Below, one piece after another: positions 228 to 9,546 of a stretch of 32,000 bases of DNA. The position numbers and the translations under genes were made by a program. The stretch comes from Akkermansia muciniphila ATCC BAA-835 (GTDB lineage Bacteria > Verrucomicrobiota > Verrucomicrobiia > Verrucomicrobiales > Akkermansiaceae), in assembly GCF_000020225.1 (NCBI RefSeq), contig NC_010655.1, positions 1,200,001 to 1,232,000 of the forward strand, read 5' to 3'. Within the stretch, counting starts at the first letter, position 1. The number at the start of each line of letters is the position of its first letter. Under the pieces are notes generated by a model that saw nothing but the letters and a program-made list of their open reading frames with translations, was not told the origin of the DNA and made no database searches.

Positions 228-3200
228 ATGGGAAACTCAATAGACCATGGCATGTTCCGGAAGTCCGTCCTGCTGGCTTTCGGATTGTCCATTTCCTTCT
301 CGGGCTTCGCGCTTGCCGCATCGGAAGAACCGGTTTCGGAGCAACAGGCCCAGGCCGTTGAAGGCGCCAGAAAAATCAATCCTGCCGCCGTGGAAGTGTT
401 GCTTGACAACAACCGCCGGATGACGCTCGATTTTTACGGAGACAATGTTTTCCGGATTTTCCGGGATGACAGAGGCGGTATTATCCGAGATCCCAAGGCG
501 GAACCGGAAGCCCGCATTCTGGCGGACAGTCCCCGGAGGCCGGTTTCCCGGCTGGATGTGGACCAGCAGGGCGATGCGGTTGTCATCACTACGGGGAAGG
601 TCAGGATTGAGATAAATAAAAAGACCTCTCTTTTCAAGGTGATCAATCTGAAGGATCATTCCGTGGTGGTGGAGCAGGCGTCCCCCGTGCTTTTTGGAAA
701 GGGCAAAACCAGCTTTTCCCTGAAGGCGAAGCCGGACGAATATTTTTACGGCGGCGGCGTACAGAACGGCCGTTTTTCCCACAAGGGAAAGGTCATTTCC
801 ATAGAAAACCAGAACAGCTGGACGGATGGCGGCGTGGCTTCCCCCACTCCCTTTTACTGGTCCACCGGCGGGTACGGCGTCATGTGGCATACCTTCAAGA
901 AAGGGCAGTATGATTTCGGTTCCAGGGAAGAGAATCTGGTGAACCTCTCGCATGATGAAAATTATCTGGATGTCTTTTTCATGGTCAGCGACGGGCCGGT
1001 CAGCCTTTTGAGGGATTTCTACCAGCTTACTGGCGCTCCCGTTCTGCTGCCCAAGTTCGCCTTTTACCAGGGCCACCTGAACGCCTATAACCGGGATTAC
1101 TGGAAGGAAGATGAAAAAGGCATCCTGTTTGAGGACGGGAAACGGTACAAGGAAAGCCAGAAGGATAACGGAGGCATTAAGGAATCCCTGAACGGGGAAT
1201 TGAATAATTACCAGTTTTCCGGCCGCGCCGTCGTGGACCGTTACAAGGCCCATGACATGCCGCTGGGATGGCTTCTGCCGAACGACGGCTACGGAGCCGG
1301 GTACGGCCAGACGGATACCCTGGACGGCAATATTGCGAATTTGAAGAGCCTGGCGGACTACGCCAGGAAAAACGGCGTGGAAATCGGTTTGTGGACCCAG
1401 TCCGACCTGCATCCCAAGCCGGAAATCAGCGCTTTGCTCCAGCGCGATATCGTGAAGGAAGTGCGGGACGCCGGAGTGCGCGTGCTGAAGACGGACGTCG
1501 CCTGGGTAGGCGCGGGCTATTCCTTCGGTCTGAACGGTATTACGGACGTAGCCCAGATCATGACTTACTACGGGAATAACAGCCGCCCGTTCATTATTTC
1601 CCTGGACGGCTGGGCCGGAACCCAGCGGTATGCCGGCATTTGGTCGGGCGACCAGACGGGCGGCGTCTGGGAGTATATCCGTTTCCATATTCCCACCTAC
1701 ATCGGCTCCGGCCTTTCCGGGCAGCCCAATATCTGTTCGGACATGGACGGCATTTTCGGCGGAAAGAACCCGTTGGTGAACGTCCGCGATTTCCAGTGGA
1801 AAACGTTCACCCCCATGGAACTGAACATGGACGGCTGGGGAGCCAATGAGAAGTATCCCCATGCCTTCGGGGAACCTTACACCTCCATCAACCGATGGTA
1901 CCTCAAGCTCAAGTCGGAACTGCTTCCGTACGCTTACAGCATTGCGGAGGAATCAGTTTCCGGCCTGCCCATGATCCGGGCCATGTTCCTGGAATATCCC
2001 AATCCCTACACGCTGGGGAAAGCGACGCAGTACCAGTTCCTCTACGGCCCTTACTTCCTGGTGGCACCCGTTTACCAGGAAACCAGGGCGGATAAGGAGG
2101 GGAATGACGTCCGCCATGGCATTTACCTGCCGGAAGGGCAGTGGATTGATTATTTCACCGGGGATTTGTATGAGGGCGGCAAGATTTACAATGATGTTGA
2201 CGCTCCTTTGTGGAAGCTGCCCGTGTTCGTTAAAAACGGCGCGATCATCCCTATGGCGAACCCGAGCAACAATGTCTCGGAAATCAATCCCAATCTGCGC
2301 ATTTACGAACTTTATCCGCACGGCAGCACCTCCTTTGCCACGTATGACGACGATGGCGTGACGGAGGAATACAGAACCGGCAGGGGCGTCCGCACTCTGG
2401 TGGAGTCCAGGGTGGACGGCAAAAACAACGTGACCGTTACTGTTCATCCGGCGGTGGGGGATTTCGACGGCTTCCAGAAAAAGAAGGCCACGGAATTCCG
2501 CATCAATGTGACGCAGAAGCCGTCCGGGGTTTCCGCCAAAATCGGGGGAAACAGCATCAACCTGGCGGAAGCGAATTCCCTGGAGGATTTCAAATCCAGG
2601 GAGAATGTTTATTTTTATGACCGGGCTCCCAACCTGAACAGGTTCGCAACGAAAGGCAGCGATTTTGAAAAAAAGGTGATCGCCGGGAATCCGCAATTGC
2701 TGGTGAAGCTGGCCGCAGCAGATATCACGGCGGCCCCTACGGTGCTTTCCGTGAAAGGGTTCCGGTTTGAACCGGCTGAAAAGTACCGCCTTTCTTCCGG
2801 AGCCCTGACCGCTCCCGCCAATGCTGCGGTGACGGAGGAAAATGCGGCGGCCTATACCCTGAAGCCCACGTGGGACGCCGTCCCGAACGCCGATTTTTAT
2901 GAAATCGAGTTTGGAGGAATGCTGTACACCACCATCAAGGGAACGGAATTCCTGTTTGAGGATTTGGAGGCCGAGACTCCTTATTCCTTCAAGGTGCGGG
3001 CCGCCAACCGGGACGGCCATTCCGCGTGGACGGCCGTCAGCGCGAAGACGAAAGCCAATCCGCTTGAGTTCGCCATTCCGGGAATCGAAGGTGAAACGAG
3101 CGTGGAAAACCAGGGCAGCTCCCTGGCGAAGCTGTTTGATTTCAAGGAAAAGGATGTGTGGCACACGAAGCATGATGCGAAGGCTGTTCCGTTTGACCTG

Positions 3201-4163
3201 GTCATGGACCTGAAAACGATTAACAGGCTTGAGAAGTTTCATTACGTTCCCCGCGAGGACGGCGGCAACGGAACGCTGCTGAAAGGCGCTGTTTATTACG
3301 GCATGGACCGGGAGAACTGGACGAAGGCAGGAACGTTCCAGTGGGATAAAAATGGAGACGTGAAGATATTCGGCTTCAAGGATGCTCCCACGGCGCGCTA
3401 TATCAAGCTTCATGTCACGGAAAGCGCGGGTGATTACGGCTCCGGCAGGGAAATCTACGTTTTCAAGGTTCCGGGTACGGAAAGCTATTTGCCGGGCGAT
3501 ATCAACAACGACGGCAAGATTGACCGGAATGACCTGACTTCCTACATCAACTATACGGGCCTGCGGAAAGGCGATTCCGACTTTGAAGGCTACATCAGTA
3601 ACGGGGACATCAACAAGAATGGCCTTATTGACGCTTACGATATTTCCGTGGTAGCCACCCAGCTGGAAGACGAAGCCGACCAGCCGCAGGAAGAAGCCGA
3701 CAAGAAAGATGAGGAAGAGGATAAGGCGGGAGGGGACGACGAGAAGAAAAAATCCGCCGAGGAGGCAAAGAAGAAAGTCCGCGTGGACGGAACGCTTTTG
3801 CTTAGTGCGGATAAGAAAAGGTATTCCAGGGGAGATGCCGTCAAGGTGTCCGTGAAGGGCCGGAACCTCCGGCTGGTGAATGCCCTGAGCTTCGCTCTTC
3901 CGTATGACCCCAAGGATTTGGAATTCGTGGGCGTGGAGGTGAAGAACATGAAGAACATGGAGAACCTGACGAACGACAGGCTTCATACGAACGGGACCAA
4001 GGCCCTGTACCCCACCTTCGTCAACATCGGAGACAAAGAGCCTGTGGAAGGAACCTCCGAACTGTTTGTGCTGAAATTCAAGGCTCGTCGCGATATGAAG
4101 TTCCAGCCGAAGCTCACGGACGGCATGGTGGTGGATAAAAAGCTGAACACCAAAAAATTGTAA
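228..4163 (+). CDS. Secreted multidomain glycoside hydrolase family 31 (GH31) protein with FN3-like, F5/8 type C (discoidin/CBM32-like), dockerin-like and cohesin-like modules
   Basis: 1311-aa ORF with an ATG start. N-terminal signal-like segment FRKSVLLAFGLSISFSGFALAAS. GH31-type core motifs (VLKTDVAWVG, IWSGDQTGG). FN3-like segment (TWDAVPNADFYEIEF...YSFKVRAANRDG). Discoidin-like segment (RYIKLHVTESAG...EIYVF). Two dockerin-type repeats (DINNDGKIDRNDL, DINKNGLIDAYDI). The start could instead be Met9 at 252. Confidence 0.85.
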   Translation: MGNSIDHGMFRKSVLLAFGLSISFSGFALAASEEPVSEQQAQAVEGARKINPAAVEVLLDNNRRMTLDFYGDNVFRIFRDDRGGIIRDPKAEPEARILADSPRRPVSRLDVDQQGDAVVITTGKVRIEINKKTSLFKVINLKDHSVVVEQASPVLFGKGKTSFSLKAKPDEYFYGGGVQNGRFSHKGKVISIENQNSWTDGGVASPTPFYWSTGGYGVMWHTFKKGQYDFGSREENLVNLSHDENYLDVFFMVSDGPVSLLRDFYQLTGAPVLLPKFAFYQGHLNAYNRDYWKEDEKGILFEDGKRYKESQKDNGGIKESLNGELNNYQFSGRAVVDRYKAHDMPLGWLLPNDGYGAGYGQTDTLDGNIANLKSLADYARKNGVEIGLWTQSDLHPKPEISALLQRDIVKEVRDAGVRVLKTDVAWVGAGYSFGLNGITDVAQIMTYYGNNSRPFIISLDGWAGTQRYAGIWSGDQTGGVWEYIRFHIPTYIGSGLSGQPNICSDMDGIFGGKNPLVNVRDFQWKTFTPMELNMDGWGANEKYPHAFGEPYTSINRWYLKLKSELLPYAYSIAEESVSGLPMIRAMFLEYPNPYTLGKATQYQFLYGPYFLVAPVYQETRADKEGNDVRHGIYLPEGQWIDYFTGDLYEGGKIYNDVDAPLWKLPVFVKNGAIIPMANPSNNVSEINPNLRIYELYPHGSTSFATYDDDGVTEEYRTGRGVRTLVESRVDGKNNVTVTVHPAVGDFDGFQKKKATEFRINVTQKPSGVSAKIGGNSINLAEANSLEDFKSRENVYFYDRAPNLNRFATKGSDFEKKVIAGNPQLLVKLAAADITAAPTVLSVKGFRFEPAEKYRLSSGALTAPANAAVTEENAAAYTLKPTWDAVPNADFYEIEFGGMLYTTIKGTEFLFEDLEAETPYSFKVRAANRDGHSAWTAVSAKTKANPLEFAIPGIEGETSVENQGSSLAKLFDFKEKDVWHTKHDAKAVPFDLVMDLKTINRLEKFHYVPREDGGNGTLLKGAVYYGMDRENWTKAGTFQWDKNGDVKIFGFKDAPTARYIKLHVTESAGDYGSGREIYVFKVPGTESYLPGDINNDGKIDRNDLTSYINYTGLRKGDSDFEGYISNGDINKNGLIDAYDISVVATQLEDEADQPQEEADKKDEEEDKAGGDDEKKKSAEEAKKKVRVDGTLLLSADKKRYSRGDAVKVSVKGRNLRLVNALSFALPYDPKDLEFVGVEVKNMKNMENLTNDRLHTNGTKALYPTFVNIGDKEPVEGTSELFVLKFKARRDMKFQPKLTDGMVVDKKLNTKKL

Positions 4164-4347
4164 TTTAACATCCTGATACGGCTCCATGCCCGGCCAAACG
4201 GCGGCCGCGCATGGAGTCTGCCGTTCCGGCGGAGTGTTTCCGCAGTATTCATCGCTGTGGAGCGGTGTTCTTCCGCGTGTTTCGAAAAATCCGGACGGAG
4301 CGGCGACGCGGAAATATTTTCCTGCCTCGCGTTTCCGGCGGAGCGTG

Positions 4348-5757
4348 ATGCAATGGGGCTATCTTAACAGGCGGATGAACCGTTTTTTTCTGGCGCGACC
4401 GGTCTTTTCCCTTATGTTGGGGGCACCAGACAGGCCCCACGATGCCATGACCGGCCCCGGACTCATCTCCTTGTTCTGTTTTTTGATAACGGCCGCCTAT
4501 TTTTTGCGCGGCGGGATGTGTGCGGGCGTTGTTTTGTGCATGGGCTTGGCGTTTTTTTCATTTTCCCGTCGCGGCTGGCTTCGCAGGAGCGTCACGTTTC
4601 TGCTGCAGGTTTCCCTGCTTTTCTGGGGGGCGGAAGCCTGGCGTCTGGCCAGGCTGTGGATGATGGAAGGGGGGCCTTTCCTGTTCTGGACTTCCATTCC
4701 GGCTGCCGCGCTGTTGCTTCATGCGGCGGCCATTCTATGGCGGAGGCGCGGAGAAAAGAATTTGCCCGTCCCGGAGCTGGCCCGCAGCCGCGTATTTTCC
4801 GTTTCCGTATTGCTTCTGTTTTTGCTGGATGCGCTGGTTCCTTTCCGTTTGCTGATGGGGGAGCGCATCTTGCCGTGGCAGGGGGCTAATGGGCTGGCGA
4901 TTCTTCTCCTGGCCTGGTGGGGCGGCTATTGCGCGGAAGGTTTGTTGAATCCGCAGACGTCTCCGCGCAGGCGGCAGGTGATGTGGACCGTGTTTGCCTC
5001 CGCTTTTTTTCTCCAGTTTCTGCTGGGAGTGACGGTGGCTCCCTCCCTGTTGATGACGGGGAAGCTCCATATTCCCGTGCCGTTTATGATGATTTCCGGC
5101 CCGGTTTATCGGGAAGAAGGTTTTTTCATGCTGGCATTGTTCAGCGTATCCGTCCTTATGGCCGGGAGTTCCTGGTGCAGCCATTTGTGCTACTTCGGGG
5201 TGTGGGACTGCCTGGCCGCCGCTTCTTCCCGCAGGAAGGGGCATCCGGTGCCGGGTGGGAAAAAAGCCTGTGACTGGAGGTGGTTTTCCCTTGCCGCGGC
5301 AGTAGGGATTCCCCTCCTTTTGTCCGTGTGGGGCGTTCCGCTGGGGTATGCCCTGGCGGCGGCGTTCGCCGTAGCTCTCACGGCTCCATTTGCCTGGAAG
5401 AGAAGTTCCGAAAACGGTGTGCGGGAATATTGCAGCAGGTTCTGCCCCATGGGGCTGGCCGCCAGTTTGCTGGGCAGGCTGTCCCCGTGGCGCATGCGCG
5501 TCAGGGAGACATGCACCGGGTGCATGCGGTGCGCCTCCGCCTGCCGTGATCTCGCCATCTCGCGCGGGGGCGGGGCCTGCCGCATTTCCCGGCGCTGCAC
5601 CTTGTGCCGCGACTGTATTTCCCGGTGTCCGCATGGCGCTTTGAGCCTCGGCATGGCCGGCCCCTTTTCCTCTGTGCCGTCCGTGCGGGCGGATATGTAT
5701 TTTGTAACGCTGGTTTCCGTCATGCATGTGGTCTTCCTGGCCACGGCTCGAATCTGA
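4348..5757 (+). CDS. Integral-membrane polyferredoxin (NapH/MauN-like 4Fe-4S binding protein)
   Basis: Many hydrophobic helices. Two membrane-proximal CxxxC motifs (CSHLCYFG, CSRFCPMG). Two C-terminal ferredoxin-type clusters (CTGCMRCASAC, CTLCRDCISRCP). The ORF opens at 4186, but its first ~55-90 codons are basic and non-membrane-like. The true start (4348, 4375, 4414 or 4447) is uncertain. Confidence 0.6.
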   Translation: MQWGYLNRRMNRFFLARPVFSLMLGAPDRPHDAMTGPGLISLFCFLITAAYFLRGGMCAGVVLCMGLAFFSFSRRGWLRRSVTFLLQVSLLFWGAEAWRLARLWMMEGGPFLFWTSIPAAALLLHAAAILWRRRGEKNLPVPELARSRVFSVSVLLLFLLDALVPFRLLMGERILPWQGANGLAILLLAWWGGYCAEGLLNPQTSPRRRQVMWTVFASAFFLQFLLGVTVAPSLLMTGKLHIPVPFMMISGPVYREEGFFMLALFSVSVLMAGSSWCSHLCYFGVWDCLAAASSRRKGHPVPGGKKACDWRWFSLAAAVGIPLLLSVWGVPLGYALAAAFAVALTAPFAWKRSSENGVREYCSRFCPMGLAASLLGRLSPWRMRVRETCTGCMRCASACRDLAISRGGGACRISRRCTLCRDCISRCPHGALSLGMAGPFSSVPSVRADMYFVTLVSVMHVVFLATARI

Positions 5758-6018
5758 TTTTATGTTGCCATGAGAGATTCCTGCTCCCTGGAGTATCCGT
5801 TTTGCGGAGGATGGATGGCATCTGTCCATTAGGAGGCTTTTTCAGAGCTGCCGTCAGAGGGATTCAGGCAGCGGTGCAGGAGGGGGACGGCCCTGAATTC
5901 ATGGAACGGCATGGTTCCCTCTTCCCATCCGAAAGAGTGGATTTTGGTTTCAGAAGGTCATTTTTGTTATTCATTGAGAGATTTATTGATGATTTAAAGT
6001 TTTTGTTATGATTTTTGA

Positions 6019-6504
6019 ATGACCGTTCAATTTATTAAAGTCACTAAAAAAGATAGGGTCTGCTATGCTCCGGTGCCGGAGCCGTTGGAAGAGGGGGATA
6101 AGCTGGAAATCATGGAAATGAAGGATGAAGCCCTTTTCCCGCCGGCAGGGAAAAACGCAAGGATTTCCCTATCCAGGAATCCCATGGTATTCGTGAAAAT
6201 GAATGACGGATTCCAGCGCATCCTGATGAAGAATATCCTGTATGTGGAGGCGGGCGGAAGTTATTGCACGCTGCACGTGCACGGCATGCCGGCTATCCTG
6301 GTATCCGCTCCGCTGGCGCGGGTATCCGAGCATCTGGATGGGGAATATTTTATCCGCGTGCACCGTTCCTACCTGGTTAACAAGCTGCATATAGAATCCA
6401 TTGCGGGCAACTTCCTCCAGGTGGGCGTCGTTGCCATTCCCATCAGCAAATTCATGAAGAAAAAAGTGCTGGGCAGTTTGAACATGCTGTCGTTTTCCAA
6501 ATAA
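6019..6504 (+). CDS. Stand-alone LytTR-family DNA-binding protein (no receiver domain)
   Basis: 161 aa. The C-terminal ~95 aa match the LytTR pattern (ILYVEAGGSYCTLHV...FIRVHRSYLVNKLHIESI...IPISKFMKKKV). The N-terminal ~65 aa are not a CheY-like receiver. AT-rich upstream region. Confidence 0.8.
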   Translation: MTVQFIKVTKKDRVCYAPVPEPLEEGDKLEIMEMKDEALFPPAGKNARISLSRNPMVFVKMNDGFQRILMKNILYVEAGGSYCTLHVHGMPAILVSAPLARVSEHLDGEYFIRVHRSYLVNKLHIESIAGNFLQVGVVAIPISKFMKKKVLGSLNMLSFSK

Positions 6505-6663
6505 GTTCCGGCCTGCCGCACGGGCTCCTGCGGCGTTCCGGGAAAGCGAAATGGAACGGCCGGAAAGGCGGGATGGAAGCAGAAACGGAATGGCCGCATC
6601 ATTCACGACGTCGCCGGAAGGCGGCATATCAATGAATCTAAACCAGAAATAGAAATTAAATAT

Positions 6664-7503
6664 ATGGCAATTGACAGATCAGCAGCAGAAGCGGCGACTT
6701 CCTCCCTGCAGTCGCTGCCTTTCGGCAACATCATCGGCGGTCCCCTGGTCGCCTGTGTGGAAGCACAGGCCCAGGCGGCCCGGACTTCCTGGGAATTCAT
6801 CCAGAACGTGGGCCTGTACGCGGATGGGGAAGAGAAGAAGACGGTGAACGTTTCCTTCCAGTTCATCAAGGACGGCCGCATGGCTCAGATTACGGTTCCC
6901 CTTCTGACCATCGTCCCCATTCCCTATATCGCCATTAACTCCATCGACATCAATTTCAAGGCGAATATCAGCGCGTCCGCCGCCAGTACGGAGACGGAAA
7001 ATTCCTCCAGTTCCGTAGACACCAGCGTTTCCGCCTCTGCAAGGTGCTTTTGGGCGCGCGGCAGCATGAATGCCAGCTATTCCAGCAAAAAGGACTCCTC
7101 TGCGACCAGGGATTCCAAATACAGCGTGGAATACACCATGGACGTAGCCGTCCATGCCGGACAGGACAGTATGCCTGCCGGGATGGCCAAGGTGCTGGAG
7201 ATGCTGAACAATAGCATTTCCGTCGTTTCTCCGGAAGGGTTCCTGGACGTGCAGCATGCCATCCAGGACGACGGAACCGTGAAATTGATAACCTCCTACA
7301 AAAACAGGGAGGGGCTGTTTGACCCGGAAGCCATCACCCTGCGGATAGGCGAAGCGACGGAAATATTTGAAAACGGTGCGGGGAATGAAGCCAGGATTGT
7401 GAAAACGGATTCCGGCAAGGAATACACACTTTCCAGGGAAGACGCCAGAAACTGCACGGTGAGCGCTGGAGAACTCAAGAGGAAGGTGGCTGTAGGCGCC
7501 TGA
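6664..7503 (+). CDS. Hypothetical protein, paralog A of a three-member family (DUF2589-like from memory)
   Basis: 279 aa, ATG start. N-terminal helix motif IIGGPLVACVEAQAQAA, then a beta-hairpin motif ITVPLLTIVPIPYIAINSIDINFKANI. A Ser/Thr-rich loop follows, then MDVAVHAGQDSMPAGMAKVLEML. The antisense ORF 6679..7515 is R/G/H-rich, typical of a shadow frame. Confidence 0.75.
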   Translation: MAIDRSAAEAATSSLQSLPFGNIIGGPLVACVEAQAQAARTSWEFIQNVGLYADGEEKKTVNVSFQFIKDGRMAQITVPLLTIVPIPYIAINSIDINFKANISASAASTETENSSSSVDTSVSASARCFWARGSMNASYSSKKDSSATRDSKYSVEYTMDVAVHAGQDSMPAGMAKVLEMLNNSISVVSPEGFLDVQHAIQDDGTVKLITSYKNREGLFDPEAITLRIGEATEIFENGAGNEARIVKTDSGKEYTLSREDARNCTVSAGELKRKVAVGA

Positions 7504-7541
7504 TAACCGAACCATAGCGATTTCTCCTCCATTCCAGAGCC

Positions 7542-8348
7542 ATGTCCCGTCTTAATCTCATCGTGGAATCCCTGCTGAAGGACATTATTGAAGCGCAGCA
7601 TGCGGCAAACTGCCACGCGGCATCACTGGCGCGCCAGTATGGGAAGAGAGGCCGTGCGTGCGGTTTCCCGCTTCCCAGCGCCCAGATAGGCTCCCTGGAA
7701 TTCGATTTGAAATATGCGGTGACGGGAACTTCCGGGGTGGAGGAGAAACAGGTTGCGGACACGGAGCAGTGGAGCCTGTTCCGGCAGGAACTGGAAGAGC
7801 GCGTGCCGGCGTTTGCCATCCGTTCCATTGTGATGGCCGTGGTGCATTCCAGCCTTCCGGACGACGAAGCGAGAAGCGACTTCTCAAGCCTGCTGGCCAG
7901 GGAGGAACAGTGGAAAAAGAATTTCTGCTCCTACCTGGGGAAGAAAATTTCCGCAGCCGTTTCCGCTCATGAGGGCGCGCTCCTGAAGGCGGAACCCGGG
8001 CTGGACAGGGGATTGCTGCTGGAGCTTCTGGCAGGCGTCGCGGAAAGGGAGTTCATGGATAATCCGGAGCTGGAGGACCTGTTCCAGGGAACCCGGGGAG
8101 ACCCCCTCAGGCAGGAATGCCGCGCCAATCTCCGGGAAGGCCTTTCCTCTTTCTTGGCCGCTCTGGCGGAAAAGTACGTCCTCACCAGGCAGGAAAGCAG
8201 TGTGGTGGTGGATGTGGAAGTAGAGGCGGACAAGCTGAAAAAGATGCCGGAGGAAGCCGTGCAGACCCTGCGCCTGAATATATCCCCTGCTTCCATTCCC
8301 TCCGTTCTGGCGGAGCAGAATGATGTTTCCGGGTTGTCCGCGCAATAG
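7542..8348 (+). CDS. Hypothetical protein, paralog B (same N- and C-terminal signature, helical insert)
   Basis: 268 aa, 38 bp after the previous stop. N-terminus LLKDIIEAQHAAN...FPLPSAQIGSLEFDLKYAV. C-terminus VDVEVEADKLKKMPEEAVQTLRL. Both segments are collinear with the paralog A and C motifs. Confidence 0.7.
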   Translation: MSRLNLIVESLLKDIIEAQHAANCHAASLARQYGKRGRACGFPLPSAQIGSLEFDLKYAVTGTSGVEEKQVADTEQWSLFRQELEERVPAFAIRSIVMAVVHSSLPDDEARSDFSSLLAREEQWKKNFCSYLGKKISAAVSAHEGALLKAEPGLDRGLLLELLAGVAEREFMDNPELEDLFQGTRGDPLRQECRANLREGLSSFLAALAEKYVLTRQESSVVVDVEVEADKLKKMPEEAVQTLRLNISPASIPSVLAEQNDVSGLSAQ

Positions 8349-8354
8349 TGATAG

Positions 8355-8951
8355 ATGATGAGTGATTCTACAAATAATAACAAGGTGAACGGGCACATTA
8401 TGAGCCTGCAGCAGCTGATTTCAGCGCCGCTGGTCGCAACGATTGACGCGGATGCGATGTCCACGGAACGCTACATGAAGCATTTCATGTCCCTGGCCTT
8501 TGAGTCCTACAATCCTGTGGACGGTTCCACCGGGGCGTTGAGGTTGATCAGCTTCAATTTTACGGACAGCGACGCTTCCGGCGGCGCGGAAAAGAAGGTC
8601 AGCGTGCCGCTCGTCAGCCTGGTGACGCTGCCGCTGCTGCAAATCAAACAGGCGGATTTTGATTTTGACATCAATATCATTGACGCCGTAGCCGCCGCGC
8701 CGAATGAACATTTTTCCCTGAACAGGGGAGAGGTGGAGTCCCCCGGCGGAAAAGAGCGGGATGAAGGGCTGAATTTTCGGGCTTCCCTGGCTCCGCAGTC
8801 CGGGAGAGGGGCTTCTTCCTCCCTGCAGGCGAACATGAAAATCCATGTCTCCATGCAGCAGGCTGACATGCCTTCCGGCCTGTCCCAATTTCTCCAGCTG
8901 GCTTCCAGGCCGCATTATGAGGATGTCCCTTCCCGGGAAAAGAATGATTAA
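8355..8951 (+). CDS. Hypothetical protein, paralog C (DUF2589-like from memory)
   Basis: 198 aa, 6 bp after the previous stop. Motifs LISAPLVATIDADA, VSVPLVSLVTLPLLQIKQADFDFDINIIDA and MKIHVSMQQADMPSGLSQFLQLA. Confidence 0.75.
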   Translation: MMSDSTNNNKVNGHIMSLQQLISAPLVATIDADAMSTERYMKHFMSLAFESYNPVDGSTGALRLISFNFTDSDASGGAEKKVSVPLVSLVTLPLLQIKQADFDFDINIIDAVAAAPNEHFSLNRGEVESPGGKERDEGLNFRASLAPQSGRGASSSLQANMKIHVSMQQADMPSGLSQFLQLASRPHYEDVPSREKND

Positions 8952-8965
8952 TTGAAAAAAACGAT

Positions 8966-9196
8966 ATGGACCAGAAAACAACTTATTCCTACCAGCGCAC
9001 TCCGGGCCTTGACTGCCCCAAATGCGGGGTGTATTTCCCCACGACCATTCCGGACTTGCTGTCCGGCTCCATCAGGTGCCCTTATTGCGGCCTGACGCTT
9101 TACATTGACCGGAAAGAATCAGGCCATGCCATGCAGGCCCTGGAAAATTTCCAGAACGCATTAGACAAGCAGCTTCCCTCCGCCTCCCTGTCATGA
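8966..9196 (+). CDS. Zinc-ribbon miniprotein (CPxCG...CPxCG)
   Basis: 76 aa, 14 bp after the previous stop. Two Cys pairs, CPKCG and CPYCG, are spaced like a zinc ribbon. Its stop overlaps the next start (ATGA at 9193-9196). Confidence 0.6.
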   Translation: MDQKTTYSYQRTPGLDCPKCGVYFPTTIPDLLSGSIRCPYCGLTLYIDRKESGHAMQALENFQNALDKQLPSASLS

Positions 9197-9546
9197 AGAA
9201 ACCGTTGATTATCCTGTCCGCCGTGCTGTGCATGGTTCTGCCGTCCTTGTCTCCGGCGGAGATGCGGCAGCGGGAACCCCGCCAGCTTGCCGCCGCCTGG
9301 CAGGAAGTAAAGAAGCAGATAGCAGACGACGGGAAAACCATCCGTGTGAGGGACGGCATTCAAGCGCTTGAACTCCTGGCGGAACTGGGGATCTCTTCCG
9401 TTCCGGCGGACGGCGTCAGGCTGTCCCGCGGCAGTCTGACCATTGTGGTCACGCGTGGGAAGAAAGAGGACGGGATTTTTTACGTGCTGGCTGTTAAGGA
9501 AGAAGGGGGCGCAAGCCTGGAAGTGAAGATGGTTCCTCCTTCCTGA
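9193..9546 (+). CDS. Small secreted protein of unknown function
   Basis: 117 aa with a Sec-type signal-like N-terminus, MKKPLIILSAVLCMVLPSLSPA. Translationally coupled to the zinc-ribbon gene by a 4-nt overlap. Confidence 0.6.
   Translation: MKKPLIILSAVLCMVLPSLSPAEMRQREPRQLAAAWQEVKKQIADDGKTIRVRDGIQALELLAELGISSVPADGVRLSRGSLTIVVTRGKKEDGIFYVLAVKEEGGASLEVKMVPPS

Follow-up and report, generated by a model that had tools for sequence, protein, structure and literature searches.

The Amuc_1010-Amuc_1015 locus

The window analyzed here, a stretch of 32,000 nucleotides from Akkermansia muciniphila ATCC BAA-835, contains the genes Amuc_1010-1015, the products of which match proteins ACD04836-ACD04841 exactly. 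These genes, herein referred to as R and A-E, are listed in Table 1 together with the neighboring non-coding features. Re-calling of the open reading frames and direct reading of the junctions gave the same six same-strand genes, with the same coordinates and gaps, as the first-pass annotation of this DNA. The gaps are 159 bp (R-A), 38 bp (A-B), 6 bp (B-C), and 14 bp (C-D), and the D/E junction is an ATGA overlap at 9193-9196. The locus is flanked upstream by a gene for a Fer4 membrane protein and downstream by a convergent PF12843 (QSregVF_b) gene.

Table 1. Genes and non-coding features of the locus (positions within the window)
Feature	Position	Strand	Remarks
Inverted repeat	5849-5911		Arms of ~20 nt; repeat search; left edge of the conserved island
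AT-rich region 5' of R	5940-6018	+	Two direct copies of TTTTTGTTAT, 5961-5970 and 6000-6009
R, Amuc_1010, ACD04836.1	6019-6504	+	161 aa
R-A spacer	6505-6663	+	Two AAGGCGG[G/C]AT blocks, 6565-6574 and 6618-6627, 53 bp apart
A, Amuc_1011	6664-7503	+	279 aa
B, Amuc_1012	7542-8348	+	268 aa
C, Amuc_1013	8355-8951	+	198 aa
D, Amuc_1014	8966-9196	+	76 aa
E, Amuc_1015	9193-9546	+	117 aa; start overlaps the stop of D

Regulator and expression

R has a LytTR domain (Pfam; residues 67-131, 48.2 bits against a cut-off of 22.6, E = 1.3e-12), and no receiver domain was found in it by the Pfam search. This domain content identifies R as a stand-alone LytTR DNA-binding protein, the receiver-less regulator that had been proposed for it. 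The palindromic core of the inverted repeat, ATTCAGGC...GCCTGAAT, is retained in four other Akkermansia species, one of which has a different upstream neighbor gene; the repeat may serve as an operator or as a structural element 5' of R. The AT-rich region is nearly invariant among Akkermansia species and probably includes the promoter and an autoregulatory region of R. Both AAGGCGG[G/C]AT blocks are kept in six Akkermansia sequences while the rest of the spacer varies, and they are candidate sites for the regulator ahead of A. Chia et al. had already predicted cis elements 5' of Amuc_1010, with the data not shown (PMC5945754). An Rfam M23 match at 6509-6568 was sub-threshold (25.3 vs. 41.2 bits) and not reproduced in relatives.

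In co-culture with Anaerostipes caccae, RNA-seq revealed a 5.28-fold increase for Amuc_1010 and joint induction of Amuc_1011-1014 with log2FC > 2, in agreement with the expected co-regulation; Amuc_1015 is not among the induced genes named in that study (PMC5945754). Its authors referred to Amuc_1010-1014 as an "interesting gene cluster" and assigned no function (Chia et al., 2018; PMC5945754). Thus, the term "undescribed system" remains appropriate for the function but not for the locus itself, which was flagged in 2018.

Proteins encoded by the locus

By sequence comparison, A and C are genuine DUF2589 paralogs, as had been proposed in the first-pass annotation. Pfam matches to DUF2589 (cut-off 23) were found for A (98.3 bits, E = 7e-28) and C (52.7 bits, E = 7.8e-14), and BLASTP aligns the two proteins with E = 5e-11 and 23% identity. 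B had been counted as a third paralog but lacks statistical support as such. No similarity of B to A or C was found by BLASTP, and profile-profile comparison with DUF2589 gave E = 0.004 and 8% probability (E = 0.25 with a more diverse DUF2589 alignment); on visual inspection, a motif-level likeness is seen at the N terminus and near a C-terminal "MP" motif.

A is composed of DUF2589 (residues ~19-184) and a C-terminal Ig-like beta-sandwich (~190-279), the latter with weak Ig-like Foldseek matches. In the AF2 model, pLDDT is 80-89 for the C-terminal domain and below 50 for the DUF2589 part; the low value may reflect only a shallow alignment, the 32 sequences of which all share at least 55% identity. 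The sole recurrent hydrophobic stretch is found at residues 73-91 (VPLLTIVPIPYIAI), and all predicted strands alternate hydrophobic and polar residues. This alternation, together with the absence of a monomer fold in AF2, is consistent with folding that takes place only within an oligomer or at an interface. A is the most conserved component, with a median identity of 58% to non-Akkermansia orthologs; the corresponding value for C, a minimal DUF2589 protein, is 46%. A search of 1.84 billion proteins with C yielded 620 cluster representatives at E <= 1e-3. Elsewhere, A-type paralogs bear C-terminal Ig-like, Big_2, DUF6734, or coiled-coil domains, and a single operon can hold up to seven DUF2589 paralogs.

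For B, no match was found in Pfam, PHROG, PADLOC, or NCBIfam. In its AF2 model (mean pLDDT 79), the N terminus forms a long helix and the C terminus consists of strands; the model further includes a beta-hairpin and an inserted bundle of helices spanning ~135 residues, and matches no fold in the PDB (best E = 0.2) or BFVD (best E = 0.07). Homologs of B are confined to the B slot of the cassette and diverge fast (median identity 28%). D carries a CPKCG...CPYCG zinc ribbon followed by a C-terminal helix, and its earlier designation as a CPxCG...CPxCG miniprotein is confirmed by the sequence; the zinc-ribbon matches are sub-threshold, and the one in PADLOC is marginal. D is located directly 3' of C in nearly all loci (median identity 44%).

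E has a hydrophobic N-terminal segment (residues 1-19), in line with the signal peptide assigned to it, and neither a signal peptide nor a transmembrane helix was found in A-D; E is therefore the only exported member of the supposed mix of cytoplasmic and exported components. The Amuc_1015 type of E is conserved within Akkermansia only and was not linked to the Bacteroidales E family by hmmsearch (E = 1.4). The proposed five-gene operon is thus conserved as A-B-C-D with R, but E is a variable slot. Profile searches of Pfam, PADLOC, NCBIfam, and PHROG gave no catalytic, nucleotide-binding, phage, or defense model for A, B, C, or E. The core proteins matched no characterized family, solved structure, defense model, or phage family, and neither profile nor structure searches placed the paralogs in a well-characterized family.

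Distribution of the cassette

The A-B-C-D order is kept in more than 150 loci from Bacteroidales, Akkermansia, and environmental bacteria, and was seen in genomes, metagenomes, and viral contigs alike. Of the related loci examined that were long enough, virtually all show it, in two phyla, which is far beyond chance. Among the 38 dereplicated complete loci, 31 have a LytTR gene next to the cassette. The absence of synteny in other genomes, considered in the first-pass annotation as grounds against a system, was not observed. R together with A-B-C-D is the conserved unit, a genuine syntenic and co-regulated cassette of undescribed function.

The cassette occupies variable chromosomal contexts and is patchily distributed across the two phyla; the flanks of ~50 dereplicated loci are not defense islands. 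Genes for Jacalin lectin and fimbrillin-like proteins recur nearby. Five expanded loci have the architecture A-A-A-B-C-D-A-A-A without muramidase and LytTR genes, both of which are likewise missing from the environmental loci. Wall hydrolysis is therefore dispensable for the core function.

Coupling with muramidases and phage copies

In 26 of the 38 dereplicated complete loci, the cassette is coupled with a peptidoglycan hydrolase of phage type that has no signal, with PG_binding_1 and Muramidase (PF11860) domains in 25 loci and GH108 in one more. The PF11860 muramidase gene is located on the same strand at most 2.5 kb downstream in 19 loci and divergently upstream in 4 loci. The association persists through rearrangement. 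R-A-B-C-D-Ec-Mur is the commonest architecture in gut metagenomes. None of 44 cassette muramidases has a signal or transmembrane segment. The PG_binding_1 + PF11860 architecture is reported to have been characterized in phage AP3 (PMC5674055). In the Akkermansia window, no muramidase was found throughout the 32 kb. The reported lack of phage hallmarks thus holds for the window but not for its relatives, which are usually coupled to a phage-type N-acetylmuramidase.

Neither a canonical holin nor a conserved small multi-TM ORF was found near the cassettes; the few candidates appear to be spurious. A small multi-TM ORF near a related muramidase was found in 35 of 63 cases in cassette-free viral contigs vs. 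15 of 117 in cassette loci (Fisher 2e-9), a comparison of naive ORFs in non-independent loci from different taxa. A few phage contigs of 50-110 kb also carry the whole unit at their terminus, adjoining an endolysin gene. One of them, 102 kb long and encoding a phage DNA polymerase, and three related contigs have R-A-B-C-D(-E) immediately before the terminal endolysin gene (phrog_1224). The phage copies of A (198 aa) have no Ig-like domain. Accessory MACPF and Jacalin genes are found in the phage region, the MACPF toxin gene adjoining the cassette.

Possible function

The envelope link hinted at earlier is plausible. Since the relatives are usually found beside a phage-type wall-cutting enzyme, the cassette may represent a novel type of inducible module for breaching the envelope. 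We tentatively consider it possible that this is a LytTR-switched module for envelope breaching or release, with the membrane lesion made by the DUF2589 complex. R would turn on the A-D(-E) operon upon a competition or stress cue; the co-induction was observed, and the cue and direct binding are presumed. A, B, and C would be made as soluble proteins and assemble as a hetero-oligomer at the cytoplasmic membrane, compromising it, with D as a putative assembly or regulatory subunit. In the Bacteroidales and phage version, the lesion would play the holin part, allowing the signal-less N-acetylmuramidase to reach the wall and cause lysis or release, and the small E-family proteins may act on the cytoplasmic or periplasmic side. 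The Akkermansia copy, having no dedicated muramidase, would only permeabilize or kill the cell or would rely on housekeeping autolysins, and its exported E would work in the periplasm. The conservation of the module, its link to wall hydrolases for which no other route to the wall was found, the phage placement, the co-induction, and the strong constraint on A across phyla, as compared with B, speak for an envelope breach; the lack of transmembrane helices in A-D and of a muramidase in the window, as well as the muramidase-free expanded and environmental loci, speak against it. We know of no precedent for a four-protein holin substitute. The MACPF and Jacalin genes of the phage region also suggest that the cassette might not be the lysis device but a moron next to the endolysin.

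The Ig-like, Big_2, and DUF6734 domains at the C termini of A-type proteins are more in keeping with a displayed structural subunit than with a holin. A structural assembly or cargo is nevertheless somewhat unlikely: here, DUF2589 paralogs, B, and D would build a filament, shell, or particle with the variable Ig-like C termini outward, and the muramidase and E would serve only to free it by lysing part of the population, in the manner of tailocin clusters or type 10 secretion. The Akkermansia copy would have retained the structure and lost the dedicated release enzyme. The multiplicity of paralogs with differing C termini, the extreme conservation of A, typical of polymer subunits, the muramidase-free cores, and the nearby Jacalin and fimbrillin-like genes agree with such an assembly, as does the absence of signal peptides and transmembrane helices, which would make release by lysis necessary. 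However, no similarity to capsid, tube, sheath, pilin, shell, or S-layer proteins was found in Pfam, PHROGs, PDB, or BFVD, the cassette encodes no ATPase, chaperone, or scaffold, the phage copies of A wholly lack the Ig-like domain, and the holin-less exit of the muramidase from the cytoplasm is left unexplained.

An abortive-infection or interbacterial-conflict system, triggered by phage or competitor and killing the producer or a neighbor, is unlikely; DUF2589 proteins would be its effector, the muramidase an accessory effector, and phages would carry the cassette as a moron. Its compactness, variable contexts, and patchy distribution, the phage-borne copies beside a MACPF toxin gene, and induction by a co-cultured bacterium fit this role, as does the inactivation of R by a frameshift in some Akkermansia genomes with intact A-E, expected of a costly system. 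PF11860/DUF3380 domains are also reported for a T6SS effector (PMC10100999). Yet PADLOC models match D alone, as a marginal zinc ribbon, the flanks are not defense islands, the commonest architecture lacks any candidate for periplasmic immunity to the muramidase, and no recognizable sensor domain (NTPase, nuclease, TIR, and the like) was found. A non-lytic envelope or colonization factor, with A at the surface or outer membrane and the operon remodeling the surface in mixed communities, is very unlikely. A surface role of Amuc_1011 was suggested by Chia et al. (PMC5945754), and Ottman et al. predicted it in silico as an outer-membrane protein (PMC4960237); the amphipathic strands of A resemble barrel strands, E is exported, and induction occurred in co-culture on mucin. 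Nonetheless, A has no signal peptide and was detected in neither outer-membrane fraction, only at a low level in the whole proteome (PMC4960237), and the endolysin coupling and phage copies would have no explanation. Chance neighborhood of unrelated hypothetical genes, favored by nothing beyond the missing functional annotation, has practically no probability and is ruled out by intact ORFs in conserved order and orientation across phyla and by the RNA-seq co-induction.

Comparison with known systems

Most Bacteroidales and phage copies resemble phage lysis cassettes (holin-endolysin-spanin) and the domesticated form of these, the type 10 secretion system, in having a signal-less PG_binding_1 + PF11860 muramidase in one operon, small exported proteins flanking this enzyme, and a dedicated transcription factor. 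Unlike phage lysis cassettes, they lack a holin or pinholin, small TM proteins being absent, as well as a recognizable spanin; the holin position is held by four soluble proteins, and the Akkermansia copy has no endolysin.

LytTR regulators of the HdrRM and BrsRM (streptococci) and LytSR/AgrA types are linked to cell-death, bacteriocin, or lysis-type outputs. As in these systems, a receiver-less LytTR protein adjoins its presumed target genes, and the promoter-region repeats suggest autoregulation. In contrast to them, the cassette has no co-transcribed membrane inhibitor protein or histidine kinase, its targets are unrelated, and its sites are candidates. Tailocin and R- and F-pyocin clusters are regulator-controlled chromosomal operons with paralogous structural proteins, lysis genes, and phage relatives. 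The DUF2589 cassette shares regulator control, paralogous proteins, lysis-gene coupling, and phage relatives with them, but has no tail, sheath, tube, or baseplate homology and is far smaller (4 core genes).

The cluster described by Chia et al. (2018) consists of the same genes, and these authors pointed out that the LytTR protein has no receiver, that the intercistronic gaps are short, and that the genes are induced jointly in co-culture, giving no function, family assignment, or comparative genomics (PMC5945754). What this study adds is the assignment to DUF2589, the relatives in Bacteroidales and phages, and the coupling with muramidases.

Gene Content of the Cassette

The cassette comprises six genes on one strand, encoding a LytTR regulator (R), two DUF2589 proteins (A and C), a helical partner (B), a zinc ribbon protein (D), and the product of a variable fifth slot (E). 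The encoded proteins are identical to ACD04836.1-ACD04841.1 of A. muciniphila ATCC BAA-835 (locus tags Amuc_1010-1015), and each was found on at least 1000 contigs. All six open reading frames of the first-pass annotation, with their strand and coordinates, were read in the sequence, as were, at the junctions, the intergenic gaps of 159, 38, 6, and 14 bp and the single ATGA overlap.

Coordinates of the cassette genes and associated features (positions are those of the window unless a numbered relative locus is named, in which case they lie within that locus)
Feature	Location	Strand	Length	Median identity to non-Akkermansia orthologs
R, LytTR regulator	6019-6504	+	161 aa	33%
A, DUF2589 protein	6664-7503	+	279 aa	58%
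B, helical partner	7542-8348	+	268 aa	28%
C, DUF2589 protein	8355-8951	+	198 aa	46%
D, zinc ribbon protein	8966-9196	+	76 aa	44%
E, fifth-slot protein	9193-9546	+	117 aa	
Upstream ORF	228-4163	+	1311 aa	
Left junction, Fer4 gene abutting the cassette	4186-6018			
Inverted repeat upstream of R	5849-5911			
Sub-threshold Rfam M23 match	6509-6568	+		
Block between Fer4 and LytTR genes, sister species	L087:1-9360		~8 kb	
Frameshifted R, sister species	L087:9362-9851, L009:7362-7850			
Intact R	L089:9361-9850			
Box and palindrome spacers (examples)	L058:7922-8000, L040:7906-8000, L023:7867-8000			
Expanded operons L066-L069, L077, L084-L086	e.g., L069:6823-15335			
MACPF gene, two large phage contigs	L098:8221-9720, L099:8241-9725	-	494-499 aa	
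Tyrosine-integrase gene after truncated C	L093:3625-4956, L094:3709-5040, L095:2400-3731			
Jacalin-like lectin gene	L005:8645-9121, L013:5255-5764, L072:6625-7182, L096:8637-9179, L097:6956-7612, L076:11916-12437		158-218 aa	

R contains a LytTR domain (PF04397, residues 67-131, 48.2 bits against a cut-off of 22.6) and has no Response_reg match in Pfam, in agreement with its first-pass description as a receiver-less protein. Only about 60 residues lie ahead of the LytTR domain, the NCBIfam LytR equivalog scores 26.7 bits (cut-off 375), and no histidine kinase gene adjoins R. The DUF2589 (PF11655) resemblance noted at first pass for A and C was borne out by scores of 98.3 and 52.7 bits (Pfam gathering threshold, 23 bits), with both matches spanning nearly the whole 154-position model. 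A and C are paralogous (BLASTP E = 5e-11). B matches no Pfam family and is not significantly similar to A or C, and the three divergent paralogs of the first-pass annotation are therefore proven for two only. Membership of B in DUF2589 found no statistical support: hhalign of the B and A families gave E = 0.004 at 8% probability over the N-terminal 63 columns only, profile-profile comparison of B with a diverse DUF2589 alignment gave E = 0.25, and the motifs common to B and A/C are visible by eye only.

As had been annotated, D carries the CPKCG/CPYCG pair of a zinc ribbon (its Pfam and NCBIfam family matches are all sub-threshold) and E has a signal-peptide-like N terminus. No transmembrane (TM) helix or signal peptide was found in A-D, and searches of A, B, C, and E against NCBIfam, PHROGs, and PADLOC gave no match. 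The cassette is flanked by a gene for a Fer4 membrane protein and by a convergent PF12843 gene. Further upstream, a 1311-aa ORF encodes a protein with a signal peptide and a Lys/Glu-rich linker; a duplicated motif like that of dockerin-type calcium-binding sites (DINNDGKIDRND ... DINKNGLIDAYD) was seen by eye in its translation and is unusual for Akkermansia.

Structure of A, B, and C

A good AF2 model was obtained for B (pLDDT 79). It combines a long beta hairpin and a helical bundle of some 135 residues with a long helix at the N terminus and two strands at the C terminus. Foldseek searches of this model against PDB and BFVD gave best E-values of 0.2 and 0.07, respectively, at TM < 0.35, and consisted mostly of globin-like helical noise. 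In the model of A, only the C-terminal domain is confident; the DUF2589 part has pLDDT < 50, for which a shallow alignment may be responsible, and is too poorly modelled for use. Weak Ig-like Foldseek matches were found for the C-terminal domain only. The first-pass statement that these proteins have no recognisable function survived these searches, in which the models of A and B had no characterised match beyond the Ig-like ones. PDB sequence and profile searches with A, the A family, diverse DUF2589 proteins, the B family, and the E family also gave no match.

As read from the sequences of A and C, each predicted strand alternates hydrophobic and polar residues, and strong hydrophobicity is confined to a single stretch, the invariant, proline-rich VPLLTIVPIPYIAI. 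Analogies to type IV pilins, tail tubes, gas vesicles, and R-bodies, drawn from the secondary-structure pattern, found no tool result in their support and were set aside. Two very long matches from the representative search (P0236 and P0366) were discarded as repetitive Ig-repeat artefacts.

Distribution and Conservation of the Cassette

In total, 2568 relatives of A were found in a word-indexed search, the Bacteroidales proteins being 55-64% identical to A. A scan of one genome per species gave 179 relatives, mostly from Bacteroidales; the others belong to Akkermansia and one Verrucomicrobiales genome. The Bacteroidales genera with relatives are Bacteroides, Prevotella/Segatella, Alistipes, Parabacteroides, Dysgonomonas, Porphyromonas, and Odoribacter, and the cassette was found in hundreds of genomes of this order. 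DUF2589 has 620 cluster representatives in a library of 1.84 billion proteins.

R and A-B-C-D form a conserved module. The order A-B-C-D is kept in all sufficiently long loci and likewise in 80 metagenome loci (scan with a 7-sequence alignment as query), and a LytTR gene was found in 31 of the 38 dereplicated complete standard loci, lying upstream on the same strand in 26 of them. Judging by the median identities to orthologs outside Akkermansia, A is unusually constrained.

The fifth slot is variable. The E of Akkermansia is conserved within the genus only. Most Bacteroidales have a protein of an E family (about 140-175 aa), of which the Es form carries a signal peptide and the Ec form a basic amphipathic helix at the N terminus. 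Placement of the window E in this family was rejected, there being no detectable relation (E = 1.4). An expanded variant, A-A-A-B-C-D-A-A-A, has up to seven DUF2589 paralogs, some with Big_2 and DUF6734 C-terminal domains; these operons contain neither LytTR nor muramidase genes. In environmental loci of 51-62% GC, A-B-C(-D) alone is kept.

Regulation and Expression

In the transcriptomic study of Chia et al. (2018; PMC5945754), Amuc_1010 is described as a LytTR-only "response regulator" beside a putative operon, Amuc_1011-1014. Amuc_1010 was up 5.28-fold in mucin co-culture with Anaerostipes caccae, and the small set of genes that exceeded a log2FC of 2 in co-culture with this species includes Amuc_1011-1014. 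The authors of PMC5945754 called the cluster interesting and its function unknown. From this joint rise in RNA-seq it follows that R is co-regulated with A-D; the co-expression implied at first pass is supported for A-D, and E (Amuc_1015) is not among the genes mentioned. Amuc_1011 was predicted in silico to be an outer-membrane protein, was not detected in outer-membrane fractions, and was seen only at a low level in the whole proteome (Ottman et al., 2016; PMC4960237). In Bacteroides fragilis NCTC 9343, the DUF2589 gene BF9343_2744 appears in a single table entry as differentially expressed under sub-inhibitory carbapenem, a cell-wall stress (PMC11402942).

About 90 nt upstream of R, together with an inverted repeat, are conserved across Akkermansia species, even where the upstream gene is different, and repeats TTTTTGTTAT are found in this upstream region. 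Two AAGGCGG[G/C]AT blocks, spaced 53 bp apart, are retained in the Akkermansia R-A spacer. The Bacteroidales R-A spacer contains a TAnnTTTG box, which we take to be the Bacteroides-type -7 promoter box. Directly after this box, 45-60 nt before A, comes GTAAGCTTAC, a perfect palindrome with variants GTAAACCTAC, and a conserved TTAAC(A)ATTTAAAAA leader lies after the palindrome; these spacers are otherwise unalignable. From the box and palindrome, A is predicted to have its own regulated promoter in Bacteroidales. The palindrome is absent from Akkermansia. No terminator-like sites beyond chance were found between A and E. A structured RNA in the R-A spacer was rejected: the full-length Rfam M23 match right after the R stop codon is sub-threshold (25.3 bits against a gathering score of 41.2, E = 0.11), and three further loci from Akkermansia gave no such match.

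Several assemblies of a sister Akkermansia species have a 1-nt deletion in the LytTR domain of R (GGAATATTT to GGAA-ATTT). Another assembly has R intact. Since A-E are intact 3' of the frameshifted gene, there are strains in which the regulator is either dispensable or selected against.

Coupling to a Phage-Type Muramidase

The cassette is frequently coupled in genomes to a signal-less phage-type muramidase (Mur), and no holin accompanies the pair. In neighbour clustering, a PG_binding_1 plus Muramidase (PF11860) gene accompanies 44 of 88 loci. It was found in 25 of the 38 dereplicated complete loci, and a GH108 lysozyme in one more (hydrolase total, 26/38). In Bacteroidales, the canonical arrangement is [lipoprotein]-R-A-B-C-D-E-Mur-[Es], and R-A-B-C-D-Ec-Mur is by far the commonest form in gut metagenomes. 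The muramidase lies divergently upstream in four lineages; thus, its coupling to the cassette survives rearrangement. PG_binding_1 plus PF11860 is the architecture of characterised phage endolysins described in PMC5674055. The cassette-linked muramidase matches phrog_1224 and has at least 582 relatives in IMG/VR. The window differs in this respect, no muramidase homolog being found across all 32 kb.

None of the 44 cassette-linked muramidases has a signal or TM segment. A simple Kyte-Doolittle hydropathy scan (19-residue window) revealed no conserved small multi-TM ORF in the cassettes, which therefore contain no holin candidate. In the commonest architecture, A-D, Ec, and Mur lack any TM segment, even an N-terminal one. 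Small 2-TM ORFs located 3' of some muramidases were rejected as hidden holins: they start at codons other than ATG, are of odd composition, and show conservation among near-identical loci only. A multi-TM small ORF was found near related muramidases in 35 of 63 cassette-free viral contigs versus 15 of 117 cassette loci (Fisher 2e-9; the ORFs were called naively, the loci are not independent, and the two sets differ in taxa). Many cassettes are flanked by small signal-peptide or lipoprotein genes (Es, Lp114, and c12), for which no spanin similarity was found in PHROG or Pfam and no embedded or overlapping gene pair was seen.

Phage and Chromosomal Context

The cassette occasionally resides beside an endolysin in large phages. 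R-A-B-C-D(-E)-endolysin-Es was found at the contig end in five large phage contigs: a related contig of 50 kb and IMG/VR contigs that measure 69-112 kb, one of which encodes a phage DNA polymerase. Among cultured or deposited phages, the sole match is an unannotated 4-kb fragment, and the plasmid collection gave no DUF2589 match. In two of these five contigs, a gene for a MACPF protein, divergently oriented, occupies the usual LytTR position just upstream of the cassette; MACPF is the family to which Bacteroidales secreted antimicrobial proteins belong. Three further IMG/VR contigs (L093-L095) were rejected as phage-borne cassettes and assigned to host flank, as a prophage integrase gene abuts a truncated C (160 aa against the usual ~204) and there is no D. 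The cassette there appears to have been interrupted by the insertion of a prophage or integrative element.

The chromosomal copies lie among ordinary, variable genes, and only fimbrillin-like, Jacalin, and AraC genes recur in their flanks. Neither a phage hallmark, among 118 flanking proteins, nor defence-island enrichment was found in about 50 dereplicated loci. On these flanks, a defence-island or prophage setting of the chromosomal copies, which the first pass had listed for checking, was rejected. The window contains no tRNA gene; its flanks consist of housekeeping genes, and the right flank is common to other Akkermansia. A small, signal-less Jacalin-like lectin gene recurs beside both chromosomal and phage copies.

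Locus L087, from a sister Akkermansia species, has a block of about 8 kb between its genes for the Fer4 membrane protein and the LytTR regulator; the products of this block are a NIR_SIR protein, a HAD hydrolase, an aminotransferase, and an ABC transporter. Since the Fer4 gene and the cassette are directly adjacent in the window, the left junction is an indel hotspot.

Proposed Function and Alternatives

A signal-less endolysin needs a lesion in the cytoplasmic membrane, and we infer that the DUF2589 complex might act at this membrane and supply it; the muramidase-less cassette of Akkermansia would then permeabilise only. We consider this reading possible but doubtful. A broader proposal is rather unlikely: that DUF2589, B, and the zinc ribbon constitute a new soluble, non-TM membrane-opening machine that takes the place of holins for the signal-less endolysins of large Bacteroidales phages and was domesticated by gut Bacteroidales and Akkermansia, with a stand-alone LytTR protein as the switch, to permeabilise or lyse cells in a programmed manner within mixed communities. 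The expanded muramidase-free loci are better accommodated by the chief alternative, which we regard as unlikely: A-D would assemble into a structure or cargo that displays Ig-like domains, and the muramidase would serve only for its release. That the cassette is a defence or conflict module would be compatible with either mechanism; neither PADLOC nor the genomic context gives this direct support, and we hold it to be improbable.

If the DUF2589 complex does open the membrane for the endolysin, it would be a new solution to the holin problem and a radically new variant of the lysis cassette. It might explain host lysis by Bacteroidales phages without recognisable holins, would assign a role to a Pfam domain that has none so far and counts 620 cluster representatives, and would provide a regulated pathway of self-permeabilisation or lysis relevant to the release of vesicles, DNA, and protein in the gut. 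If the cassette builds a structure instead, this would be a new bacterial protein assembly. Under either reading, the type strain makes the system accessible to experiment. Bacteroidales dominate the human gut, and A. muciniphila is a flagship among next-generation probiotics.

Comparison with Known Systems

None of the four core proteins resembles anything characterised, although the cassette ranks with the loci most strongly induced when A. muciniphila is grown with another gut bacterium. They belong to no characterised family, in the sense of having no characterised relative and not of a demonstrated new function. The published record found consists of the transcriptomic note on Amuc_1010-1014 and two incidental mentions of DUF2589; the literature on DUF2589 (PF11655, IPR024510) and on LytTR with lysis in Bacteroides yielded no functional study.

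Unlike two-component response regulators of the LytR/AgrA type, R has no CheY-like receiver and no adjoining cognate kinase, as PMC5945754 agrees. The streptococcal HdrRM and BrsRM systems include a co-transcribed membrane inhibitor, whereas no TM protein is found beside R in the window or in relatives. Among the defence systems of PADLOC-DB v2, R, A, B, C, and E have no match, and D has only a marginal one, to PDC-M14A (18.6 bits, E = 4.5e-4), as zinc ribbons typically do. Prophage or mobile-element cargo differs from the window cassette, which has no integrase, terminase, capsid, or tRNA target. No Pfam, PDB sequence, or profile match links the proteins to aerolysin, leukocidin, or MACPF pore-forming toxins, a comparison made at the sequence level only, the DUF2589 fold being poorly modelled. 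The canonical phage lysis cassette contains a holin, which is found neither in the window cassette nor in its relatives, and an endolysin, which is absent from the window cassette but present in relatives, at 26 of the 38 dereplicated complete loci.
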